Origin: Patescibacteria group bacterium
Lineage (GTDB): Bacteria; Patescibacteriota; Microgenomatia; UBA12405
Reading direction: 5' to 3'
Length of the DNA stretch: 64,000 nucleotides
Assembly: GCA_013387215.1 (NCBI GenBank)
Contig: WARW01000019.1
Span: forward strand, 22,717-86,716
In this document: piece after piece, positions 3,202 to 60,108 of the stretch
Layout: every line of letters starts with the position of its first letter
Numbering within the stretch: position 1 is the stretch's first letter
Program-made: the position numbers and the translations under genes
The notes under the pieces: generated by a model
What the model was told of the DNA's origin: nothing
The model's input: only the letters and a program-made list of their open reading frames with translations
Database searches by the model: none

Positions 3202-4404
3202 TTAAAAATTTTTCAACCACTCTTTAACTTCATTTGCTACTTTTTCTTTATTTTCTCCCTTAATTACCTGACAAATTAATTCTCCTATTTTGACCATATC
3301 CTCTTCTTTCATGCCTCTGGTAGTCATTGCTGGTGTTCCAATTCTGATACCAGATGGTCTCAAAGGTGAACCTTCTTCATGAGGAATAGTATTGGCATTA
3401 ACGATTATGTTGGCTGCCTCTAAATCTAAAGCCACTTGCTTGCCCATTTCTCTGCCCACATCCACCACCATTAAATGGTTTTCGGTCCCAAACACTCTAA
3501 ACCCATTTTTCTTTAAAGTTTCGGCCAAAGCTTTAGCATTTTTTAGCACTTGAACTGCATATTCTTTGAATTCAGGCGTACTAGCCTCGGCAAAAGCTAT
3601 CCCCATTGCTGCAATTGCATTCTCATGCGGACCGCCTTGCAGGCCTGGGAAAACTGCTTTATCGATTTTTTTAGCCAGTTCCAGATCCTTTTCCAAACCT
3701 TTTTTAGTTACGCCGATAAAAGCCCCTCTTGGACCTCTCAAACTCTTGTGGGTAGTGCTGGTTATCACATGTGCATATTCAACTGGGCTCATATGCACTC
3801 CGCCCACAACCAAACCCACAATATGGGAAATATCTGCAACTAACCAAGCACCCACACTATCGGCAATTTCTCCAAATCGTTTAAAATCCAAAACATATGG
3901 ATAAGCCGTGGTGCCGGCAAAAATCATCTTAGGTTTAGTTTCTTTAACTAAGTTTTCCAACTTGTCATAATCAATCCTTCCATCCGGCTCAACATCATAT
4001 TGGATACTTTCAAAAAACTTTCCGGAAAAAGTAATCTTTGGATGTCCATGAGTCAAATGTCCGCCAGCTGAAAGTTTCAAACCGCAGATTTTATCGTCTC
4101 TCTCCAACAAAGCCATTTGCACTGCACTATTGGCAGGACTTCCGGAATAAGGCTGGACATTTAAATGTTCCACTCCTAAAAGTTCCTTGCCTCTGGCAAT
4201 TGTTAAATTTTCAATTTCATCAATAATGGCATTGCCCTGATAATATCTTCTGCCAGGATAACCTTCAGCATATTTGTTGGTCAGCCCGCTCCCGATTGCT
4301 GCCATCACATCCTCTGATGCAAAATTCTCGCTTGGAATCAGCTGAATCTGTTCTTTTTGTCTTTTTTCTTCCGCTTTAATAAGCTCCAACATTTTATCTT
4401 TCAT
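3202..4404 (-). CDS. glyA: serine hydroxymethyltransferase
   Basis: Full-length SHMT similarity (…YSGSPANSAVQMALL…, HLTHGHP…, PLP-lysine region TTHKSLRGPRG). Confidence 0.95.
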   Translation of the reverse strand: MKDKMLELIKAEEKRQKEQIQLIPSENFASEDVMAAIGSGLTNKYAEGYPGRRYYQGNAIIDEIENLTIARGKELLGVEHLNVQPYSGSPANSAVQMALLERDDKICGLKLSAGGHLTHGHPKITFSGKFFESIQYDVEPDGRIDYDKLENLVKETKPKMIFAGTTAYPYVLDFKRFGEIADSVGAWLVADISHIVGLVVGGVHMSPVEYAHVITSTTHKSLRGPRGAFIGVTKKGLEKDLELAKKIDKAVFPGLQGGPHENAIAAMGIAFAEASTPEFKEYAVQVLKNAKALAETLKKNGFRVFGTENHLMVVDVGREMGKQVALDLEAANIIVNANTIPHEEGSPLRPSGIRIGTPAMTTRGMKEEDMVKIGELICQVIKGENKEKVANEVKEWLKNF

Positions 4405-4471
4405 ATTATTAATTAAATTAATAACAAATTAAATTTATTAAAGATTTTTAAGTTCATATTTTTTGAGATTT

Positions 4472-4491
4472 TCAACGTGGTAACACATTGA
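4472..4491. promoter_or_regulatory. 21-bp imperfect palindrome TCAACGTGG-taa-CACATTGA (copy A), upstream of glyA
   Basis: Half-sites AACGTG / rc AATGTG. Followed on the + strand by AAAAAAATATGACGAAAAAA. Flanked by a 10-bp inverted repeat ttgagatttt…aaaatctcaa (4463-4526). Confidence 0.5.
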
Positions 4492-4531
4492 CTGATCGAA
4501 AAAAAAATATGACGAAAAAATCTCAATTAAC

Positions 4532-5491
4532 TTATAGAATTTTACTCTGATTTTCCCATTTAAAAAGATCACCAAGAGATCTTTCCTGATGAACTCTCCA
4601 AATTATTTTTCCCAAAAGCGGAGCCAACGAAATCACTTTTACTTTAGGAGTTCTTTTTTCGCAAGGAATTGGAACGGAATTCAATAAAAGTATTTTTGAA
4701 GCAGCTGATGATTCTAATCTTTCACAAGCATTTTTGGACAAAAGTGCATGGGTTGCACACACCACCACATCTTTAGCCCCGAAATCTTTTAATACATTTG
4801 CTGCAGCTGCAATTGAACCGCCGGTATCAATAATGTCATCGATAATAATTGCTGTTTTATCTTTCACATCACCCACCAAATGGGCTACTTCAGCTTCGTT
4901 ATGTTGTTTTCTGACTTTATCAATAATGGCCAAAGGTGCTCCCAAAAGATCAGCTAATTTATTGGCTCTTTTTACTCCGCCAATATCTGGTGATACTACT
5001 ACGATATCTTGGTAGTTTAATTTTTTAATTTGTTTGGCAAACAAAGGATAGCCCACGAAATGGTCTACTGGAATATCGTAAAAACCTTGAATTTGTTCCG
5101 TATGTAAATCGACAGTTATTAATCTATCAGCACCTGCTTTAGTAATTAAATCAGCCACTAGCTTAGCAGTAATTGGTTCTCTAGAGGTCACCTTCCGGTC
5201 TTGTCTTGAGTAACAAAGATAAGGACAGATTAAATTGATTCTTTTTGCTGACGCTCTTTTTAAAGCGTCAATAATAATCAACATCTGCATCAAGTTGTCA
5301 TTCACCGGGCCAACTAAACTTTGAATAATATAAATATCATCTCCTCTAACTTTTTTACCTATCTTTACATATATTTCCCCATCAGCAAAATTTTTGATTT
5401 CAATCGGAGTCAAAGGCACATCTAAATTCTTCGCTATTTTCTGGGCAAGTTTTAAATGGGCAGTACCGCTAATTAATTGAATTTTGTTCAT
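4532..5491 (-). CDS. prs: ribose-phosphate pyrophosphokinase (PRPP synthetase)
   Basis: ORF 4532..5530. Start most likely at MNKIQLISG (ATG at 5491) with AGGAG RBS. The Prs family signature runs throughout (…DLHTEQIQGFYDIPVDH…, …IIDDIIDTGGS…). Confidence 0.93.
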   Translation of the reverse strand: MNKIQLISGTAHLKLAQKIAKNLDVPLTPIEIKNFADGEIYVKIGKKVRGDDIYIIQSLVGPVNDNLMQMLIIIDALKRASAKRINLICPYLCYSRQDRKVTSREPITAKLVADLITKAGADRLITVDLHTEQIQGFYDIPVDHFVGYPLFAKQIKKLNYQDIVVVSPDIGGVKRANKLADLLGAPLAIIDKVRKQHNEAEVAHLVGDVKDKTAIIIDDIIDTGGSIAAAANVLKDFGAKDVVVCATHALLSKNACERLESSAASKILLLNSVPIPCEKRTPKVKVISLAPLLGKIIWRVHQERSLGDLFKWENQSKIL

Positions 5492-5571
5492 ACTCCTTAA
5501 ATTTTTAAAGCTGGGGGCAGCTAATTCCACTATAGCCCAAAACAGGAATATTGCTACAGGCTAAATCTGGC

Positions 5572-11135: not shown

Positions 11136-12086
11136 TTAACAGAACGGGCATTTATTGCCACTATAATAGCAGCCGCATTGTTTACATTCCTTAAAGCCAT
11201 CTGGAATCTTGCCGTAAGACACATGTCCATCGACCACAAAATATCCATAACCGTATCGGCCCACTGTAGTTTCACCAGCACAACCAGAACTTGATTCTCT
11301 TTTAGATCCAGTCATTAAACCAAACATATACATTTTCAAGTCATAGCTAACTTCAGTATTTCTTTTACCAATTCCCCCATCTTTAATGGTCTGAATTCTA
11401 AAATAATCATAAACCGAAGTATAAAGTCTTAAAATTTTATCTTTACTCAAAGTTATCTCCTCTCCGAATTCTTTTTTAAAATCTTCAATATTTTTCTTTA
11501 CTTGTCTTTCTATCGATTCGTAACTAAATCCATATTTATTACTAGCCAATTCAAACAAAGAAAATAGTTCACATAACTTTAATTCCGAATTAATCGGTCT
11601 CCCTAAAATTTCCATTTCACTGCTAGCCTCTTGGCCGCCTAATTCAGTCAACACTTTATTCATTTCTCCAAAACCTTCTCTAACTTGAATTCTATTCCAA
11701 ACTACTTTTCCCTCCACACATCTCCAAAAATCCACACAGTTTTCTGAATAACCCAAAGTCTCATTTTTAGGACTAAAATGAACCCAAGTTTTATTTGGAT
11801 CTTTTTTTAAACCTTCTTCAATCGCGTAAATTGCCTCAGTTTCTTCTCTCACTCCGCCTCTTGAAGTCAAATGAACCACACTTTCATGAGACACCGAATC
11901 CACAATTCTTTCATTTTCCCAAATGTATGTTTTTGAATATTCCACTAAACCAAAATCTTCAGCTAATTGTGTCGACAATTCTAAATCCAAGCTTTTTACT
12001 CTTACTTCTGGGTCTAATCTGCCTAAAAATTTAACTTCGTTTTCTGGAGAAAATCCTAGATTTTTTTTATATTTTTCTACTGACAT
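11136..12086 (-). CDS. hypothetical protein with C-terminal CxxC…CxxC zinc-ribbon
   Basis: The C-terminus CKQCGCYYSGNKCPFC forms a zinc ribbon. No other family recognised. Lies downstream of, and co-oriented with, the PduO-type gene. Confidence 0.55.
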   Translation of the reverse strand: MSVEKYKKNLGFSPENEVKFLGRLDPEVRVKSLDLELSTQLAEDFGLVEYSKTYIWENERIVDSVSHESVVHLTSRGGVREETEAIYAIEEGLKKDPNKTWVHFSPKNETLGYSENCVDFWRCVEGKVVWNRIQVREGFGEMNKVLTELGGQEASSEMEILGRPINSELKLCELFSLFELASNKYGFSYESIERQVKKNIEDFKKEFGEEITLSKDKILRLYTSVYDYFRIQTIKDGGIGKRNTEVSYDLKMYMFGLMTGSKRESSSGCAGETTVGRYGYGYFVVDGHVSYGKIPDGFKECKQCGCYYSGNKCPFC

Positions 12087-12169
12087 ATTACTTTTGCGCG
12101 AAAGTTTTGGTTATCCGGCTATACGGTTGCGGCACAGCCCAGGACTTACACCTGGTTCCCCACTAATTT

Positions 12170-12652
12170 TTATATCGTTCGGCTAATTATAAACAAATAA
12201 TCTGACAAACGGTTGAAGTATTTTAAAACATCTTCATCGATTTTTTTAGAATTATTCAAACTCACAACTCTTCGTTCAGTTCTACGAGCTATCGTCCGAC
12301 CTAAATGTAAAAAGGCTTCAATTTCATTTTTACCTGGCACCACGAATTCTTTTAGTTCAGGTAATTCCTTTTCCATTCTCATAATTTCAGCCTCAAAAAA
12401 GTCCACTCTTTTATTAATTTCTTCAAATTTTTTTCCACACGCCAACTCACCATTAATTCTCATCAAATCTTTTTGTATTTCTTCAATTTGAATCTTAAAT
12501 TCTGGAATCTGGAATTTTATTTTTACAATTCCCAACACCGCCTGCAATTCATCAATCGTTCCCACTGTTTCCACTAACACATGGTCTTTGGTAACTATTT
12601 GATAGTTGCAAGTTGTTTTTCCTTTATCGCCTGTCTTTGTTGTTATCGACAT
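12170..12652 (-). CDS. ATP:cob(I)alamin adenosyltransferase, PduO/MMAB type
   Basis: N-terminal TKTGDKGKTT…VETVGTIDELQAVLG matches the PduO-type ATR signature. Adjacent to the B12-dependent class II RNR. Confidence 0.8.
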   Translation of the reverse strand: MSITTKTGDKGKTTCNYQIVTKDHVLVETVGTIDELQAVLGIVKIKFQIPEFKIQIEEIQKDLMRINGELACGKKFEEINKRVDFFEAEIMRMEKELPELKEFVVPGKNEIEAFLHLGRTIARRTERRVVSLNNSKKIDEDVLKYFNRLSDYLFIISRTI

Positions 12653-12698
12653 TATTTTTAATATTAAAAAATTTTAAAACTATAATTTTTTGTGACAT

Positions 12699-12718
12699 TG
12701 AACGTGGTGACACATTCA
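12699..12718. promoter_or_regulatory. palindrome TGAACGTGG-tga-CACATTCA (copy C), upstream of the cobalamin adenosyltransferase gene
   Basis: Same core AACGTGGnnnCACATT. Confidence 0.5.
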
Positions 12719-12761
12719 CCGGAACAAAAAATTCATAGTGTAAATTTTAATATATTTTTAT

Positions 12762-12782
12762 GGGGTGCGGTTTCCGCACCCC
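12762..12782 (-). terminator. stem-loop (ggggtgcgg-ttt-ccgcacccc) just after nrdJ stop
   Basis: 9-bp perfect GC stem 16 nt downstream of the nrdJ stop. The A/U-rich tail is only moderate. Confidence 0.5.
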
Positions 12783-12797
12783 ATAGTTTATTAATTT

Positions 12798-15305
12798 TTA
12801 ACTGCACTTACTGTAACCGCAGAATTGGTTAGTACATTTAAAACAGCCTTCTTCAGCTCGAAGCGGGCTGCCGCAATCTGGACAAGCACTAAATTTGCTT
12901 TCAATTGCCGCTTGTTCAGCTCTGATACTCGCCAAAATACTTGGTGTGTCTACAGTTTTCACTTCGCTTGGCATTAAAATCTCATTCTTCTCTTCGCCAA
13001 ACATATTTAGCTGTTCACCTTTGGCAATTTCCAAAAGAGATTTACCAACGGCATCAAACATACTCAAAACTGTTCCAGAACCTAAACCGACTTTTTGGCC
13101 GCAAGAGATTCCAATTAAATGTTCTGACACCTCATCTAGAGTTGCTCCATATTTTAAAGCCAATGAAGCTAATCTTCCAGTTACCTCTGCGGTTCCCGCC
13201 ATGTAACCGCCGCTTTTACCTAAATTCACAAAAACTTCAATAGGACCGTCACCAGCTTCATAAAAAATTGAAGTGTAAACATTACCCATGTCGCATTTCT
13301 TTTTAAGTCTGACTCCTCGAGCAATAGTTGGTGTGGCTTTTTTCTTGTTCATAACTAACTTTTCCACTACCTCTTCTTTCTTTTCTTCTTTTGCTTTAAC
13401 TTTTTGCAAAGGTTCAAAAGATCTTGAGCCGGTTCGGTAAACAGTAATACCTTTGGTTCCTAAAGAATAAGACATTAAATATGCATTTCTGACATCATCA
13501 ACTGTAGCTGTTTCTGGCAAATTAATGGTCTTGGAAACTGCATTATCAGTATATTCTTGGAAGGCTGCCTGAATTTTAATGTGCCATTCCGGCTCAATTT
13601 CCAAAGCGGTTATAAACACTTTTTTAACTTCTTCTGGAATACCCTCAACTCCAGTTAAAATGCCTCCATTCTTCACAATTTTTTCCATTAATTCTTCAGA
13701 ATAGATATTTCTTTTCTTCAGTTCTTCCACTAAAACTGGATTAACTGTATACAAAGTTTTTCCTTCAACAGTATTTTTTTGGAATCCCAAAGAAAATACC
13801 GGCTCAATTCCTGATGAAGTGTCAGCCAATAAACTGATTGTTCCGGTTGGAGCAATAGTAGTTAGGGCCATATTTCGTGGTTTGTAATCAGTGCCTGCGT
13901 AAACACTCACGTCCCACATGGGGAATGGTCCTCTGACTTCACCCAATTCTTGAGTAGCAATTCTGGCAGATTCAGTCACAAACTTCATTATTTTTTTAGC
14001 CCAAGCAATACCTTCATCAGAATCATATTTAATTCCCAACTTAAATAAACAATCTGCAAAACCCATCACCCCTACTCCGATTCTTCGGGTTTTACTTACC
14101 ATGTCTCTTATTTTTTGGACTGGGAACTCATTTATTTCAACAACGTTGTCCAAGAAATGAACTCCGGTTCTGATGGTGCTTTTTAAAAGTTCCCAATCTA
14201 AATCTCCATTAACTACAAATTTTGCTAAATTAACGCTGCCCAAATTACAGGCATCATAAGGCAATAATGGTTGTTCACCGCATGGGTTGGTTGCTTCAAT
14301 TCGGCCCATGACTGGAACTGGATTTGAGCTTGGGGCATTCATTCGGTCGATAAAAACCAAACCAGGATCGCCAAATTGCCATGCCAAACGAGTCACTAAA
14401 TTAAATACTTTGTAAGCATTTAATTTCATACTGACTTTTTTATCTCGTGGGTTAATCAATTCATAACCCTCGCCTTCCTCTTTGGCAACTGCCCAATCGT
14501 AAAGTTTTTTAATTCCGATTTCAATTTCTCGTAGTCTTGCATCTACATCTCGATTTTGTTCTGCCAATCTAATTTCTTCCACCACATCTTCTGGAATCGA
14601 ATCATCAGCACAAAACTTTTTGTCTGGTTCGATTCTATCCATGAAAACATTTGTTACTGCCAAAGAAATATTGAAATTAGTCAAACTCCATTCATCTAAT
14701 TTCACCACCGCAAATCTCAAAACGTCTGGATGGTCAATTGAAAGCATACCCATGTTGGCCCCTCGTCTGACTCCGCCTTGTTTTATTTGAGCCGTAACAT
14801 CGTTGTAGGCCTGCATGAAAGATACCGGACCGACAGTTGTACCGCCGCTGGTTTTAATGTAATCGCCATAAGGTCTTAATCTGGAAAATGAAAACCCAGT
14901 TCCACCACCGCTTTTATGAATCAAAGCCATATCTGACATGGTTTGCAAAATAGATTCCATCGAATCATCGATTGGCAACACAAAACAAGCCGATAATTGT
15001 TGATGTGGCTTTCCGGCATTTACCAAACAAGGTGTGTTTGGAAAAAATCTTTGTTGAGCCATCAAGCTGTAAAATTCCAAAGCTGTTTTTTCGACTGCTT
15101 CATCACTTGCATTAAAACATTTATCACCCTTAGCCACATTCAAAGCTACTCGCCAAAAAATATTTTTAGCCTCTTCGACTGCTTTGCCATCCTCTGTTTT
15201 CATTGAATATCTAGTTCGTGCAATATATTTTGCATTCTCCGACAACTGTGGTTCTGGAAGTTCCATCATACTATTATTATTGGACCGAAAATTTATATCT
15301 GCCAT
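12798..15305 (-). CDS. nrdJ: ribonucleotide reductase, class II (adenosylcobalamin-dependent)
   Basis: RNR catalytic motifs (…[11 protein letters not shown]…, [18 protein letters not shown]). The 835-aa length and monomeric class II architecture fit, as does the C-terminal CxxC…CxxC zinc ribbon. Confidence 0.92.
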
Positions 15306-15308
15306 TTA

Positions 15309-15761
15309 TTATTTTTTTAAATTTTTAAAATCAACTAATAATTTTTGAAATTCATCAATAGAATTAATATCCAAATAAACTGTTGCAAACCTAATATAAG
15401 CCACCGGATCAATATTTTTCAGTTTCTCTAAAATCATTATTCCAATTTCTTTCGAAGGTATTTCCACACTTGGCCAATTTAAAAGCTTCATTTCAATCTC
15501 ATCAATAATCTTGGCTTTGTCTTCCTTACTCATTCTAAAACAAGCCTTATCGATACATTTTTCTAGCTTTTCGCGACAAAAATCTTCAACTCGGCCGCTT
15601 TTTTTAATTACTTTAAGCTCAATATTCCCCACTCTCTCGTATGTCGTAAACCTCTTGTTGCACTTAATACATTCTCTGCGCCTTCTGGTTACTCTACCGT
15701 CTTCAGCCTCGCGGCTTTCTAAAACGTTTGATTCGTCACACTTGCAATAAGGACAAAGCAT
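15309..15761 (-). CDS. nrdR: transcriptional repressor NrdR
   Basis: N-terminal zinc ribbon MLCPYCKCDES…CIKC plus ATP-cone domain. Immediately upstream of nrdJ. Confidence 0.92.
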   Translation of the reverse strand: MLCPYCKCDESNVLESREAEDGRVTRRRRECIKCNKRFTTYERVGNIELKVIKKSGRVEDFCREKLEKCIDKACFRMSKEDKAKIIDEIEMKLLNWPSVEIPSKEIGIMILEKLKNIDPVAYIRFATVYLDINSIDEFQKLLVDFKNLKK

Positions 15762-15786: not shown

Positions 15787-15800
15787 CACTATTTCTAGTG
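15787..15800. promoter_or_regulatory. NrdR box-like palindrome (CACTAtttcTAGTG) upstream of nrdR-nrdJ
   Basis: Palindrome about 30 nt upstream of the nrdR start, resembling the published NrdR-box consensus (acaCwAtATaTwGtgt). A degenerate second half-site (catagctagtg) lies about 33 bp further upstream. Confidence 0.55.
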
Positions 15801-15950
15801 GATGAAAATCATCATACCCACCATAGCTAGTGACGGTCAATACAACGAAATATATCAAAAATTTAATATTCAATTTTTCTGCGGAAAAAATTTGCAAAAA
15901 AAATACCGCTTGTCTACTTTTTAGTAAACCCTGCGGTATTAAATTTTAAT

Positions 15951-33129: not shown

Positions 33130-33277
33130 ATATGAATGTTATAATCCTCTATTCACCGAAGACAGTAGGTTTTCTGAGCAATCAGAATCGAAGCATCCTA
33201 CCGAGGCAATCAACAAAGTTATTTGTATTTGATTATCTCCTCGCACTCGGCGAGGATTTTTTTTATTAAAAAACATT
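33130..33277 (+). promoter_or_regulatory. rplJ promoter and structured L10 leader with attenuator-like hairpin
   Basis: gttataatcctc -10 element. About 130-nt leader ending in ctcctcgcactcggcgaggattttttttt (GC stem + U-tract) immediately before the rplJ ATG. This resembles the known L10(L12)4 autoregulatory leader arrangement. Confidence 0.5.
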
Positions 33278-40707: not shown

Positions 40708-40965
40708 ATGGATAATCAGACCATATCACAAGATGTACTTGTGAAACAAAACGCCGCCCCAAAAAAAATTAATGGAATCTCTATCGACAACCTTCCAGAC
40801 CTCCTAACGGTGGCCGAAGTTGCTGACCTTTTAAGAGTGAGTAAACTCACTATTAAGCGCTGGGGAAAAAGAGGCAAGTTGCCTGCAATCCGCATTAACG
40901 CTCGAGGCGACCGCCGCTATCGAAAAGAAGCTGTGTTGTGGTTATTGGGAATCCAAGCTGACTAA
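40708..40965 (+). CDS. small HTH DNA-binding protein (excisionase/MerR-like HTH_17 type)
   Basis: LLTVAEVADLLRVSKLTIKRWGKRGKLPAIRINARGDRRYRKEAVLWLLG is a typical Xis/MerR-superfamily winged HTH. RBS agaggag. Confidence 0.6.
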   Translation: MDNQTISQDVLVKQNAAPKKINGISIDNLPDLLTVAEVADLLRVSKLTIKRWGKRGKLPAIRINARGDRRYRKEAVLWLLGIQAD

Positions 40966-41059
40966 GTTTTGTTAGTCAAACTTTTTCAAAAGACTCCGGT
41001 TATTCCGGAGTTTTTTGTGTATGCGACATATTTTTTGAAATCATGTTTTTTAAAGATTT

Positions 41060-41080
41060 CCAACGTGGACTCCACATTGG
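41060..41080. promoter_or_regulatory. palindrome CCAACGTGG-act-CCACATTGG (copy B) between the HTH gene and ruvB 3' ends
   Basis: Near-perfect 9-bp inverted repeat with 3-nt spacer. Followed by AAAAAATATGATGAAAAAAAA, as in copy A. Confidence 0.5.
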
Positions 41081-41110
41081 CCGATCTCTAAAAAATATGA
41101 TGAAAAAAAA

Positions 41111-42070
41111 TTAAGCAAGGACCCGTCCTCTTGGAGTTCTCTTAATTAAACCTTTTTTCATCAAATATGGTTCGTAAACCTCAGTGATTGTGCCCACATC
41201 TTCGGTTAAGGCCGCTGCAATATTCTCTACTCCAACAGGTCCTCCGCCATATTGGTTCTTAACAATCTCTAAATATTTTCTATCGGCATCCGAAAGTCCC
41301 ATATCATCCACACCTAACATATTTAATGCCTCTCTCGCCTCTTTAAGTGTGATTAAACCGTCATTTTTGATCTGAGCATAGTCTCGTACCCGGCGAAGCA
41401 ATCTATTGGCAATTCTAGGGGTGCCTCTGGCTCTTTTAGCTAATTCCAAAGACGCATCTCTTTCAATTTTTACTTTCAAAACATCGGCCGTTCTTGAGAC
41501 TATTTCTTCTAAATTTTCATCATCATAAAAATCCAACTGTTGCACATAACCAAATCTGTCTCTCATTGGACCGCTAATCAAACCGATTCTTGTTGTTGCC
41601 CCAATCAATGTAAATTTTTGCAAATTTAATCGAACAGTTTTAGCCGATGGTCCTTTGCCTAGAACAATATCCAAAGCAAAATCTTCCATGGCCGAATAAA
41701 GCATTTCTTCCACCAATTTATTCAGCCGGTGAATTTCGTCAATAAACAAAAAATCTCCTTTTTTAAGTCCGGTTAAAATTGAAGCTAAATCGCCGGCTCG
41801 AGTCAAAGCCGGACCAGATGTCATTTTCAAAGCGCCGCCCATTTCTTTTGCCATCAAAAAAGCTAAAGTTGTTTTACCCAAACCCGGAGGTCCATAAAAT
41901 AAAATATGATCCAACGAATCCCCTCTAGTTCTGGCGGCATCCAAAAATATTTGCAGTTGATCTTTCAATTTTGGCTGGCCAATAAATTCTGAAAGTTTTT
42001 GCGGCCGCAAACTTTTTTCAACAATTTTTTCTTCACTTTTTGCTTTCGCATCAATTAATTTGTCTTCCAT
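41111..42070 (-). CDS. ruvB: Holliday junction branch-migration ATPase RuvB
   Basis: Walker [12 protein letters not shown], sensor motifs, and C-terminal winged helix. Confidence 0.95.
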
Positions 42071-51693: not shown

Positions 51694-51770
51694 CGGGGAT
51701 TGGCGCAATTGGCTAGCGCGCAGCGTTCGGGACGCTGAGGCTGCTGGTTCGAATCCAGTATCCCCGACCA
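51694..51770 (+). tRNA. tRNA-Pro (anticodon CGG), CCA encoded
   Basis: Manually folded cloverleaf: acceptor CGGGGAT/ATCCCCG (C1:G72, typical of bacterial tRNA-Pro). Anticodon loop uuCGGga. T-loop TTCGAAT. Confidence 0.85.
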
Positions 51771-51855: not shown

Positions 51856-51927
51856 GTCCTTATAGTTCAATGGATAGAACGGCTGCCTCCTAAGCGGCAA
51901 ATCCAGGTCCGATTCCTGGTAGGGACA
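51856..51927 (+). tRNA. tRNA-Arg (anticodon CCU), no encoded CCA
   Basis: Manually folded cloverleaf: acceptor GTCCTTA/TAGGGAC. Anticodon stem gctgc/gcggc with loop cuCCUaa. T-arm ccagg-tccgatt-cctgg. Confidence 0.85.
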
Positions 51928-58514: not shown

Positions 58515-59505
58515 TTTTCCGCTTTAAAAGATAAACTCCTAAAACCAGATACCAGCCGATTAAAATAAAATAATTAAATTTAAAATCAATACTAGCCCAG
58601 CTTAAATTTCCCAAAACCTCCACTATTACCACAAAATATTTTAATAATGGATATATCAACAACAGAAAAGCATGACCTAAAATATTACAAAATACTCCGA
58701 TAATAGCTCCGATACCTCCGATTATGGTAATAATTTCCACCAAACCTATAAGCATGGCATTGCTCAAAAAACTAATAATACTTATAGTTCCGAAACTAAA
58801 ACTCAAAATCGGCGTAATAAAAAGGCTCACCCACAAAGTCGATTTAATATTGTTAAATCCCTTTTCATTATTTTTTAACTCCGAAATTACGGCTATAAAC
58901 GCCAAAAAGCTGAGCCAAAAACTAATCTCCAAAATCATTTTTGGATCAGCCAAAAGCATAATAATTATTGTTAGAATCAAGCTTCTCCCGATTGAATATT
59001 TTCTGCCCAAAAGCTGCGCCCAATAATAAATGCCGATTAAGATTACTGCCCTTATCACCGGAATCTGCCACCCCACTAAATTTACATAGCTAAAAGCCAA
59101 GATTAAAGCCAGTATTATTGCTTTCTTTCTCCCCAAAATAACCGCCAAATTTTCAACAATAAGTGAGGTCAAAATTATCACATTGGTCCCGCTGACTACT
59201 ACAACGTGTACGATACCGCTTCGTTTTAACTGCTCCCAAAAAGTTTTATCAAATCCTGTCTTGTCACCCAAAATTATTCCTGCCAAAAGCCCCGCCTCTT
59301 TCGGCGGCAAACTTTGATAAATCACCTGGATCAAACTATCACTCTTTACAAACTTGTACACCAAACCCATTATAAAAATTACACAAATCCATAATAGAAA
59401 AATTTTGAAGTTACTATTTGAAATTGGCGAAGATAAAAGATTTTTTGGAGCGCAATCATGCGAAGCGCGTGAGCACCAAAAAAATTTTATCAAGCCAATT
59501 TTCAT
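58504..59505 (-). CDS. comEC: ComEC/Rec2 membrane 'competence' domain protein
   Basis: Polytopic membrane protein with …GIVHVVVVSGTNVIIL… matching the ComEC competence-domain signature. Confidence 0.8.
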   Translation of the reverse strand: MKIGLIKFFWCSRASHDCAPKNLLSSPISNSNFKIFLLWICVIFIMGLVYKFVKSDSLIQVIYQSLPPKEAGLLAGIILGDKTGFDKTFWEQLKRSGIVHVVVVSGTNVIILTSLIVENLAVILGRKKAIILALILAFSYVNLVGWQIPVIRAVILIGIYYWAQLLGRKYSIGRSLILTIIIMLLADPKMILEISFWLSFLAFIAVISELKNNEKGFNNIKSTLWVSLFITPILSFSFGTISIISFLSNAMLIGLVEIITIIGGIGAIIGVFCNILGHAFLLLIYPLLKYFVVIVEVLGNLSWASIDFKFNYFILIGWYLVLGVYLLKRKNEV

Positions 59506-60108
59506 AAACCGACTTTATCCTTAATTTTTTCGAATAATTTATCGCCTATTCCACCCACCAATTTCAATTCTTCAATATTTTTAAACCCTCCTTTCTCTGT
59601 TCGATAATCAATTATTTTCTGGGCAATGCTTGGTCCAATTCCAGGTAGTATGTCAAAATCGCTTAAACTGCCATTATTTAGGCTGATTTTATTATTCTTG
59701 ACCGTGCTTGTATTTGCTTTTGTCTCAATATCTTCCGAAGAATTTGGAATATAAATTTTTTGGCCGTCGATTACTGTTTCTGCTCTATTAAGATTCTTTT
59801 CTACCCATTGACGATCAGCACCAATTGACAGCCCTCCCGCTCTCTCCAAAACATCAGCAATCCTATCGCCTTTTTTTGAATTCGTAAACTCCTGGATGTA
59901 TTACTTCCCCGCTTACATCAATCATTACCTTACTAGAAACTTGTGCATCACCAGTCACTCCAACACCGCTTACTTTAGATATTACTTCAACTTTATTATT
60001 TTGAGAATATTGATCTTTAATCGATAGCCCCACCCCGACAGCAATAAGCATTATCCCTATCGCCAATACACCATCCAATATCTTAAGGTTTTGTAAAATT
60101 TTTAACAT
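59502..60108 (-). pseudogene. comEA: comEA (membrane anchor + SLBB + HhH) interrupted by a frameshift in a T7/A7 homopolymer
   Basis: ORF 59863..60108 (TM + …GEVIHPGVYEFKK) and ORF 59502..59849 (…RIADVLERAGGLSIGAD…DGQKIYIP…HhH) form a continuous ComEA if one A is removed from the run at 59871-59877. Confidence 0.6.

Follow-up and report, generated by a model that had tools for sequence, protein, structure and literature searches.

The question raised by this locus, a stretch of 64,000 nucleotides of patescibacterial DNA that is referred to here as the window, is what a short palindrome with the core AACGTGG-N3/4-CACATT is doing there in three copies (n=3). An earlier interpretation made from the letters of the window alone, the sequence-only reading, took the palindrome to be the site of a dimeric transcription factor linking glyA to B12 adenosylation and offered, for one copy, an antisense promoter or a small mobile or structured element as fallbacks. 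The tip palindromes of copies A, B, and C lie exactly where that reading had placed them (Table 1), and the claim that their recurrence is beyond chance is borne out by 3 window matches to the pattern AACGTGGN{3,4}CACATT, as against 0.00 expected from 100 dinucleotide-preserving shuffles. The positions 5′ of glyA (copy A) and 5′ of the PduO-type adenosyltransferase gene (copy B) hold, and the asymmetry that had been described, with CG in the left half and CA in the right, is real: it corresponds to a T·G (U·G) pair on the minus strand in a stem of 8-9 bp. Two labels had been interchanged. The tail AAAAAATATGA(C/T)GAAAAAA is common to the copies at 4472 and 41060 (A and C) rather than to those at 4472 and 12699, and the copy between the convergent 3′ ends of ruvB (minus) and an HTH gene (plus) is the one at 41060, not at 12699. 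The 10-bp inverted repeat said to bracket copy A exists as an alternative pairing of 4463-4472 with 4517-4526, whereas in the fold common to the family 4517-4526 pairs with 4440-4449.

The 20-bp palindrome constitutes only the tip of an imperfect palindrome of ~90 nt, which is present in all copies. Each of the three initial window copies folds into a rod of ~80-90 nt, with fold z-scores of -4.2 to -6.4 on either strand; the element as a whole is a three-helix rod of ~90 nt, or of 105-115 nt where outer extensions are included. On the strand by which the element is defined, an outer stem pairs GAAAAATTC with GAATTTTTC and is surmounted by an asymmetric internal loop (5′ side, 2 nt; 3′ side, 3 nt). 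The middle stem comprises a variable segment of 4-7 bp and a T6-8/A6-8 run, a conserved 5x5 internal loop places TCCNG opposite AAYGTC, and the tip—a stem of 6-9 bp closed by a loop of 3-4 nt—carries an invariant T·G mismatch. The tip hairpin of copy A reads TCAATGTG-TTAC-CACGTTGA on the minus strand, and that of copy C has a 9-bp stem and a 3-nt loop. Scored with a covariance model (R2), the minus strand reaches 65.5 bits in copy A (plus strand, 25.5; fold z-score -5.6), 80.6 bits in copy B (plus strand, 36.0), and 65.1 bits in copy C (plus strand, 28.7; fold z-score -6.0). An exhaustive covariance-model search of the window with the filters off returned 4 copies only, all on the minus strand. 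The fourth, copy D, matches the family in its outer and middle stems and in the 2-nt/3-nt internal loop and differs in its tip (GTGCTCACGCGCTTCGCATGATTGCGC), a tip type also found at L027 16197-16294 and L028 18792-18894; it scores 27.9 bits with another model (R1) and 36.2 bits on the minus strand vs 22.8 on the plus strand with R2, at a fold z-score of -4.3. Within copy D, ATGA at window 59502-59505 contains both the stop of comEA and a possible start of comEC. The open reading frame runs through all of copy D, which may thus encode the ComEC N-terminus; alternatively, ComEC may start about 45 codons further downstream.

Table 1. Rods and other features of the window
Feature	Position	Strand	Context
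Copy A	4439-4528	-	between prs stop (4532) and glyA start (4404); tip 4472-4491
Copy B	12664-12754	-	between RNR GC hairpin (12758-12786) and adenosyltransferase start (12652); tip 12699-12718
Copy C	41026-41116	-	overlaps last codons and stop of ruvB; faces HTH-gene terminator; tip 41060-41080
Copy D	59418-59507	-	diverged fourth member at comEA/comEC junction
glyA	3202-4404	-	downstream of copy A
prs	4532-5530	-	upstream of copy A
PduO-type adenosyltransferase gene	12170-12652	-	downstream of copy B
Class II RNR gene	12798-15305	-	own GC hairpin (12758-12786), then copy B
Ribosomal protein L10 leader	33138-33272	+	Rfam; unrelated to rods
HTH gene	40708-40965	+	convergent with ruvB
ruvB	41111-42070	-	3′ end overlapped by copy C
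Two tRNA genes	51694-51767, 51856-51927	+	Rfam; unrelated to rods

It is the structure of the rod that is conserved, while its sequence varies. In a sequence-only MAFFT alignment of 24 copies, which was not fitted to structure, paired cells amount to 86.3%, as against 71.2% in shuffles (0 of 500 reach the observed value) and 42-51% when the partners are slid, and 25 of 33 pairs have changed on both sides. In the three window copies carrying the original core, the two outermost pairs of the tip change in compensatory fashion; the tip, not the termini, is the best-conserved part of the element. The T·G is kept in 23 of the 24 aligned copies and is retained across the tip variants AATGTG/CACGTT, AGTCTG/CAGGCT, AGTGTGG/CCACGCT, AATGC/GCGTT, and AATAC/GTGTT. 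Apart from this invariant pair, the stems hold 15 G·T and 21 A·C mismatches on the defined strand, and since G·T is no commoner than A·C, the T·G represents a specific mark rather than a general tolerance of wobble pairs. Deamination scarring was rejected as its sole explanation because the loop asymmetries (2 vs 3 nt; TCCNG vs AAYGTC) give the identical polarity and because the position of the mismatch is fixed while the adjacent pairs covary. The idea that the outer stem is a duplicated palindromic target was likewise ruled out by its covariation as an inverted repeat. Both strands of the rod fold about equally well; the defined strand outscores its complement in every copy, by a covariance-model margin given as about 25-65 bits.

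The repeat is specific to some Candidatus Shapirobacteria (Patescibacteria/CPR), very small bacteria that have not been cultured; GlyA homologues also place the window among them. A strict pattern built from the three window copies and run against GTDB with one genome per species found 8 loci, namely four in Candidatus Shapirobacteria MAGs and four in contigs that are labelled otherwise and have a similarly low G+C content (0.35-0.39). A scan of JGI metagenomes contributed 11 more loci (19 in total with GTDB), and profile and covariance-model searches raised the total to ~41 copies on Candidatus Shapirobacteria contigs, tip variants included; a borderline model match (L030 18471-18548; E=0.045) lacking the features of the family was discarded. 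The pattern scan of viral contigs gave 0 matches, blastn against phage and plasmid records gave low-complexity AT matches only, and no Rfam family passed the gathering threshold, nor was any match at E<=10 meaningful. The element is missing from about 75 kb of related genomes. A concatenated four-frame profile of the peptides that the element can encode had no match at E<=10 in the protein database, where 348 proteins shared words with it. Copies of one genome are only about 75% identical to one another, and one subtype is 92% identical at non-orthologous sites across genomes, the adjacent gene being 77% identical at the DNA level. The genes next to the copies are functionally unrelated. Most intergenic copies are co-oriented with their neighbours and lie 0-14 nt past a stop and 10-35 nt ahead of the next start. 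A cluster of three ATP-grasp/RimK-like genes (L001, L003, L006, L010, L014, L017) is unusually rich in rods: each intergenic spacer harbours one, as does the middle gene, and differing subtypes occupy the same site in different genomes.

All copies share one orientation with respect to base composition. In 41 of 41 copies the defined strand coincides with the G-rich one, and the GC skew of the flanks is +0.16 to +0.44; many copies come from related contigs, and by our estimate ~18 independent sites stand behind the 41. The first set gave 34 out of 34, including antisense copies in radical-SAM and QueA genes, and four further loci, fetched by way of radical-SAM orthologues, added seven more copies, each of them on the G-rich strand. 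Concordance with the direction of transcription, in contrast, is only about 12/17. The intergenic copy L028 17806-17894 has both neighbouring genes on the opposite strand, and the same applies to the preceding gene and the downstream neighbours of the two copies with a D-type tip in L028 and L027. All along the window, C exceeds G on the plus strand (GC skew -0.15 to -0.28), both where genes lie on that strand (-0.16; third codon positions, -0.47) and where they lie on the minus strand (-0.28), and C-richness over genes of both strands makes the skew a property of the strand and not of coding. Genes in these loci are split near-evenly between the strands (87 kb vs 74 kb), so that the polarity is no by-product of gene orientation. 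It is fixed with respect to the G-rich DNA strand, whatever the direction of transcription. An excess of G characterizes the leading strand, and the G-rich parental strand is the template of the lagging strand; it is this template that becomes transiently single-stranded at the fork. With GC skew as a proxy for replication, we infer that the G-rich strand of these loci is the lagging-strand template. The skew of the Shapirobacteria loci is in itself very strong (|0.15-0.44|), of one sign, and independent of the gene strand, and the even gene split indicates that genes in these genomes are only weakly co-oriented with replication.

Gain, loss, and tandem amplification of the element are seen at given sites. 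At the RNR-pduO site, two relatives have 0 copies (L022 and L026, with spacers of 11 nt and 2 nt, respectively), the window has 1, and a third relative (L020) has 3 in tandem, of which two have decayed. The prs-glyA site is occupied once in the window and not at all in L020 and L022, the two closest syntenic relatives (GlyA identity 80% and 84%, respectively). Some copies are retained at orthologous sites with compensatory changes. Taken together, such changes in situ and the divergence within a genome suggest that the insertions are old and constrained in place, which fits a host function as well as mobility. Neither a target-site duplication nor a flanking direct repeat was found at any copy, the flanks being too AT-rich and too diverged; the 5′ flanks are without a fixed motif that would define a conserved target, and comparisons of filled and empty sites yielded no pair with clean DNA boundaries. 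The prs-glyA spacers of the two relatives (L020 9930-9990 and L022 9930-9990) have a motif of their own in common, TTATGGTGTAA-N13/14-ACCAGTTTT 5′ of glyA, which is missing from the window, whose spacer is filled by the rod. The L022 spacer also contains TCAGTCAAT, identical to the 5′ side of the copy A tip, which may be chance or a remnant.

Besides lying between genes, the element has inserted in frame within unrelated genes. QueA of locus L004 carries a clean insertion of 30 residues between residues 276 and 277 of Bacillus subtilis QueA (PDB 1yy3), and a radical-SAM protein from a different genome (L002) contains the inserted peptide, FKDTIFYDIERGNTFAEHKK, again, the part common to the two inserts being FKDTIFYDIERG(D/N)TFAEHKK. 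Among radical-SAM orthologues (n=120), the spacer between CxxxCxxC and GGE measures 36 residues in 34 proteins and 55-71 in about 31. The site holds 0, 1, or 2 copies, and proteins 81-85% identical to the query differ in the presence or absence of the insert. The element is read there in at least two frames, a third (frame-hybrid) one being suggested; the orthologue of L008 contains two tandem copies read in another frame. The core of the element is devoid of stop codons in 4/6 reading frames. A sense-strand copy resides in the RimK-like ATP-grasp gene of L001, L010, L011, and L014, is decayed in L006, and is absent from L003, a close relative of L001. Copies inside genes, the identity of a subtype across sites, and tandem arrays together point to the behaviour of a mobile or amplifying repeat. 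Two sites show further details. One radical-SAM orthologue (P0150) has a spacer, ..FLTKDFKDAKLKSIL, that retains the first residues encoded by the arm (KDFKD) while the core is gone, and resembles an internal deletion of an earlier insertion. Where L001 has its rod, the RimK-like gene of L003 has a GC-rich palindrome, GGGCGACC-atgaa-GGTCGCCC (about 2110-2190, minus), which may represent another small element or a footprint.

The element is probably a non-autonomous, dispersed hairpin DNA repeat of a REP/RPE/IS200-like kind, with a spread or retention tied to DNA that is single-stranded at the replication fork. A strand-specific enzyme of single-stranded DNA would act on the folded single strand, would use the T·G mismatch and the loop asymmetry as recognition marks, and might copy, excise, or integrate the element at the fork. 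IS200/IS605 ends follow a comparable logic, as do REP elements and their Y1 HUH transposases. As far as polarity alone is concerned, either strand may be the active one. No transposase or HUH gene was recognized by eye in the list of window open reading frames, and a tblastn search with an approximate IS200 TnpA query gave no match in 309 kb, a small sample for an enzyme that could act in trans from any place in the genome. The window copies are most likely passengers at the prs-glyA, RNR-pduO, ruvB 3′, and comEA-comEC junctions and not regulators, and they may have side effects on mRNA.

Several known systems share features with the rod. REP/BIME elements (REPIN; Escherichia coli, Pseudomonas) are likewise short hairpin chromosomal repeats lying mostly just past genes, their bases vary between copies while complementarity stays, and their tandem copy number at a locus varies between relatives, as it does here at the RNR-pduO (0/1/3) and radical-SAM (0/1/2) sites. 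In REP, a conserved non-complementary position in the stem is required for recognition by the enzyme (PMC3333891); the invariant T·G parallels this conserved mismatch and, by analogy, may have a role in recognition. Unlike REP, the rod lacks GTAG 5′ of the foot in every copy, the 5′ side of the tip foot being TCC(T/G)G-(T/C)GA(A/G)T, and it is a single three-helix structure of ~90 nt rather than a REP of 30-40 nt or a REP doublet. Moreover, it is not strictly extragenic, given the copies in QueA, radical-SAM, and RimK-like open reading frames, and it adheres strictly to one strand, whereas BIMEs occur in either orientation. A RAYT gene was recognized neither in the window nor in the 309-kb sample. 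The ends of IS200/IS605 elements and their transposase-less derivatives (PATEs) resemble the rod as strand-specific imperfect hairpins without target-site duplication. Excision and insertion of IS608 take place on the lagging-strand template (PMC5027513), and the one-strand orientation of all rods would match this bias if the G-rich strand is that template. In IS200/IS605, however, two distinct subterminal hairpins flank a body, whereas the rod is one palindrome, and no conserved 5′ target tetra- or pentanucleotide is definable for it.

Rickettsia palindromic elements (RPEs) are known to insert in frame into genes (PMC10969869). Like the rod, they are palindromes of ~100 bp repeated within a reduced genome, where they occur intergenically and in frame in unrelated housekeeping genes, to which they add a conserved peptide. 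They differ in belonging to an unrelated phylum, the host of the rod not being one of the Rickettsiales, and in that the rod is read in at least two frames, with hints of a third, at a single gene site; this comparison with the RPE families is one of description. To our knowledge, a polarity with respect to the replication strand has not been reported for RPEs. The attC sites of integrons are imperfect single-strand hairpins (57-141 nt) that rely on asymmetry over sequence and follow the stops of co-oriented genes; the active strand is distinguished by structural asymmetries, and it matters how the sites are oriented with respect to replication (PMC5371416). In contrast to attC, the rod has no RYYYAAC/GTTRRRY core at its base, which is formed by GAAAAATTC/GAATTTTTC instead, and rods are found at housekeeping operon junctions and in open reading frames, with no integrase or cassette logic. 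MITEs such as Correia and ERIC are non-autonomous palindromes of ~100 bp near genes, possibly co-transcribed with them, but the rod is without target-site duplication, is best conserved at its tip, and has a strand-specific polarity. The rod thus lacks defining features of REP, IS200/IS605 ends, MITEs, and attC, and yet, judged by analogy, it would work like them.

There is some room, if only tentatively, for a previously undescribed class of single-stranded-DNA hairpin elements in CPR bacteria, either mobilized at the fork by an enzyme without relationship to the known Y1 HUH transposases or domesticated as a structural, strictly replication-polar signal of the lagging-strand template. In its mobilized version, such a class may be able to colonize coding sequences in several reading frames. 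A related reading, which we regard as rather unlikely, holds that the rod is a polar chromosome signal of benefit to the host, comparable to Chi or KOPS but folded, read on one replication strand by a putative replication, repair, recombination, or segregation protein and kept by selection. The polarity of all 41 copies, pairing maintained by compensatory changes, the invariant T·G, the retention of RNR-pduO copies in the window and in L020, and the divergence of copies in the same genome, which do not look like recent bursts, would all be expected of such a signal. Its distribution, however, is patchy, with none in the 75 kb of related genomes, and in the window the density is low (4 per 64 kb) and the spacing irregular. 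Tandem arrays with decaying members, copies in coding sequences, presence or absence among close orthologues, and a near-identical subtype at non-orthologous sites further argue against it.

The placement of most intergenic copies, co-oriented and at short distances past stops and before starts, is also what a cis-acting RNA element in a polycistronic mRNA would show, whether an RNase III processing site or an intercistronic stabilizer of 3′ ends in the manner of co-transcribed Correia and ERIC sequences. A coaxial rod of ~30 bp with internal loops resembles the substrates of RNase III, for which Correia provides a precedent (PMC10969869), and in RNA the mismatch would be a legitimate U·G wobble. 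Nevertheless, polarity tracks the G-rich strand, and antisense copies (radical-SAM, QueA, L028, L027) keep the marks of polarity. Beyond the invariant pair, G·U is no commoner than A·C, which is not the wobble tolerance of an RNA; both strands fold about equally, and there is no Rfam match. We consider this reading improbable. An unusual bidirectional intrinsic terminator of AT-rich genomes is very unlikely. Copies do lie just past stops, and the outer stem forms an A-tract/T-tract such that both strands end in GAAUUUUUC. However, a terminator scan finds none inside the elements, the U-run is about 6 nt away from the stem, and the stems are AU-rich. The RNR gene has a GC hairpin of its own ahead of copy B, copies are found between genes that are directly adjacent in relatives (such as L022 with its 11-nt spacer), and sense-orientation copies lie inside the RimK-like open reading frame. 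Scans of the three original window sites for promoter and terminator consensus sequences revealed nothing consistent, and the antisense promoter that had been suggested at one of them thereby loses its basis.

A palindromic operator through which a dimeric transcription factor co-regulates one-carbon, nucleotide, and B12 genes was suggested by copies A and B upstream of glyA and pduO and by a core resembling two half-sites, but it is almost certainly wrong, since the element is missing at orthologous promoters (glyA in L020 and L022, pduO in L022 and L026), the stems covary rather than hold a fixed sequence, half-sites are not enriched outside the palindromes, copies reside inside genes and after ruvB and comEA, the neighbours have no common function, no promoter consensus is associated with the copies, and a candidate operator for the nucleotide-metabolism genes is already provided by the NrdR-type boxes that precede nrdR. 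The sequence-only reading had itself proposed to judge its operator by whether the motif is conserved in orthologous intergenic regions, and by that comparison the operator already fails. That reading is partly upheld overall: its operator and its antisense promoter fall, while its fallback of a small mobile or structured element was essentially right. The lack of half-site enrichment also led to the rejection of a DNA-uptake sequence or monomer site. The NrdR-type boxes are two 14-nt palindromes on the minus strand, CACTAGAAATAGTG and CACTAGCTATGGTG (15787-15800 and 15819-15832), spaced 32 bp from centre to centre and conforming to the NrdR-box pattern. They overlap a promoter-like stretch, TTGACC...GTATGAT, upstream of nrdR (15309-15761) and the RNR gene, and the pair appears to be the real nucleotide-metabolism operator of the region.

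The repeat and mobile-element biology of CPR/Patescibacteria is almost undescribed, and a full-text literature search found nothing relevant on palindromic elements or MITEs in these bacteria. The rod family unites traits that are known separately, namely mismatch hairpins of the REP type, colonization of genes of the RPE type, and coupling to the replication strand of the IS200/IS605 type. If confirmed, it could provide a marker of strand or replichore for assembling and orienting MAG contigs, it would account for length polymorphisms in conserved proteins of these bacteria, and it would caution against annotating copies as operators or small RNAs. It would also point to a single-stranded-DNA enzyme in genomes to which little mobile DNA is ascribed.

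Another element of the window concerns the B12 genes themselves. A gene of 316 residues (11136-12086) has no obvious domain and carries a C-terminal CxxC...CxxC; L020, L022, and L026 have a gene without Pfam match at its position. The spacer between the 316-residue gene and the adenosyltransferase gene holds an AdoCbl-II riboswitch (12099-12177, minus), which scores 38.5 bits in Rfam vs a gathering threshold of 36.5.
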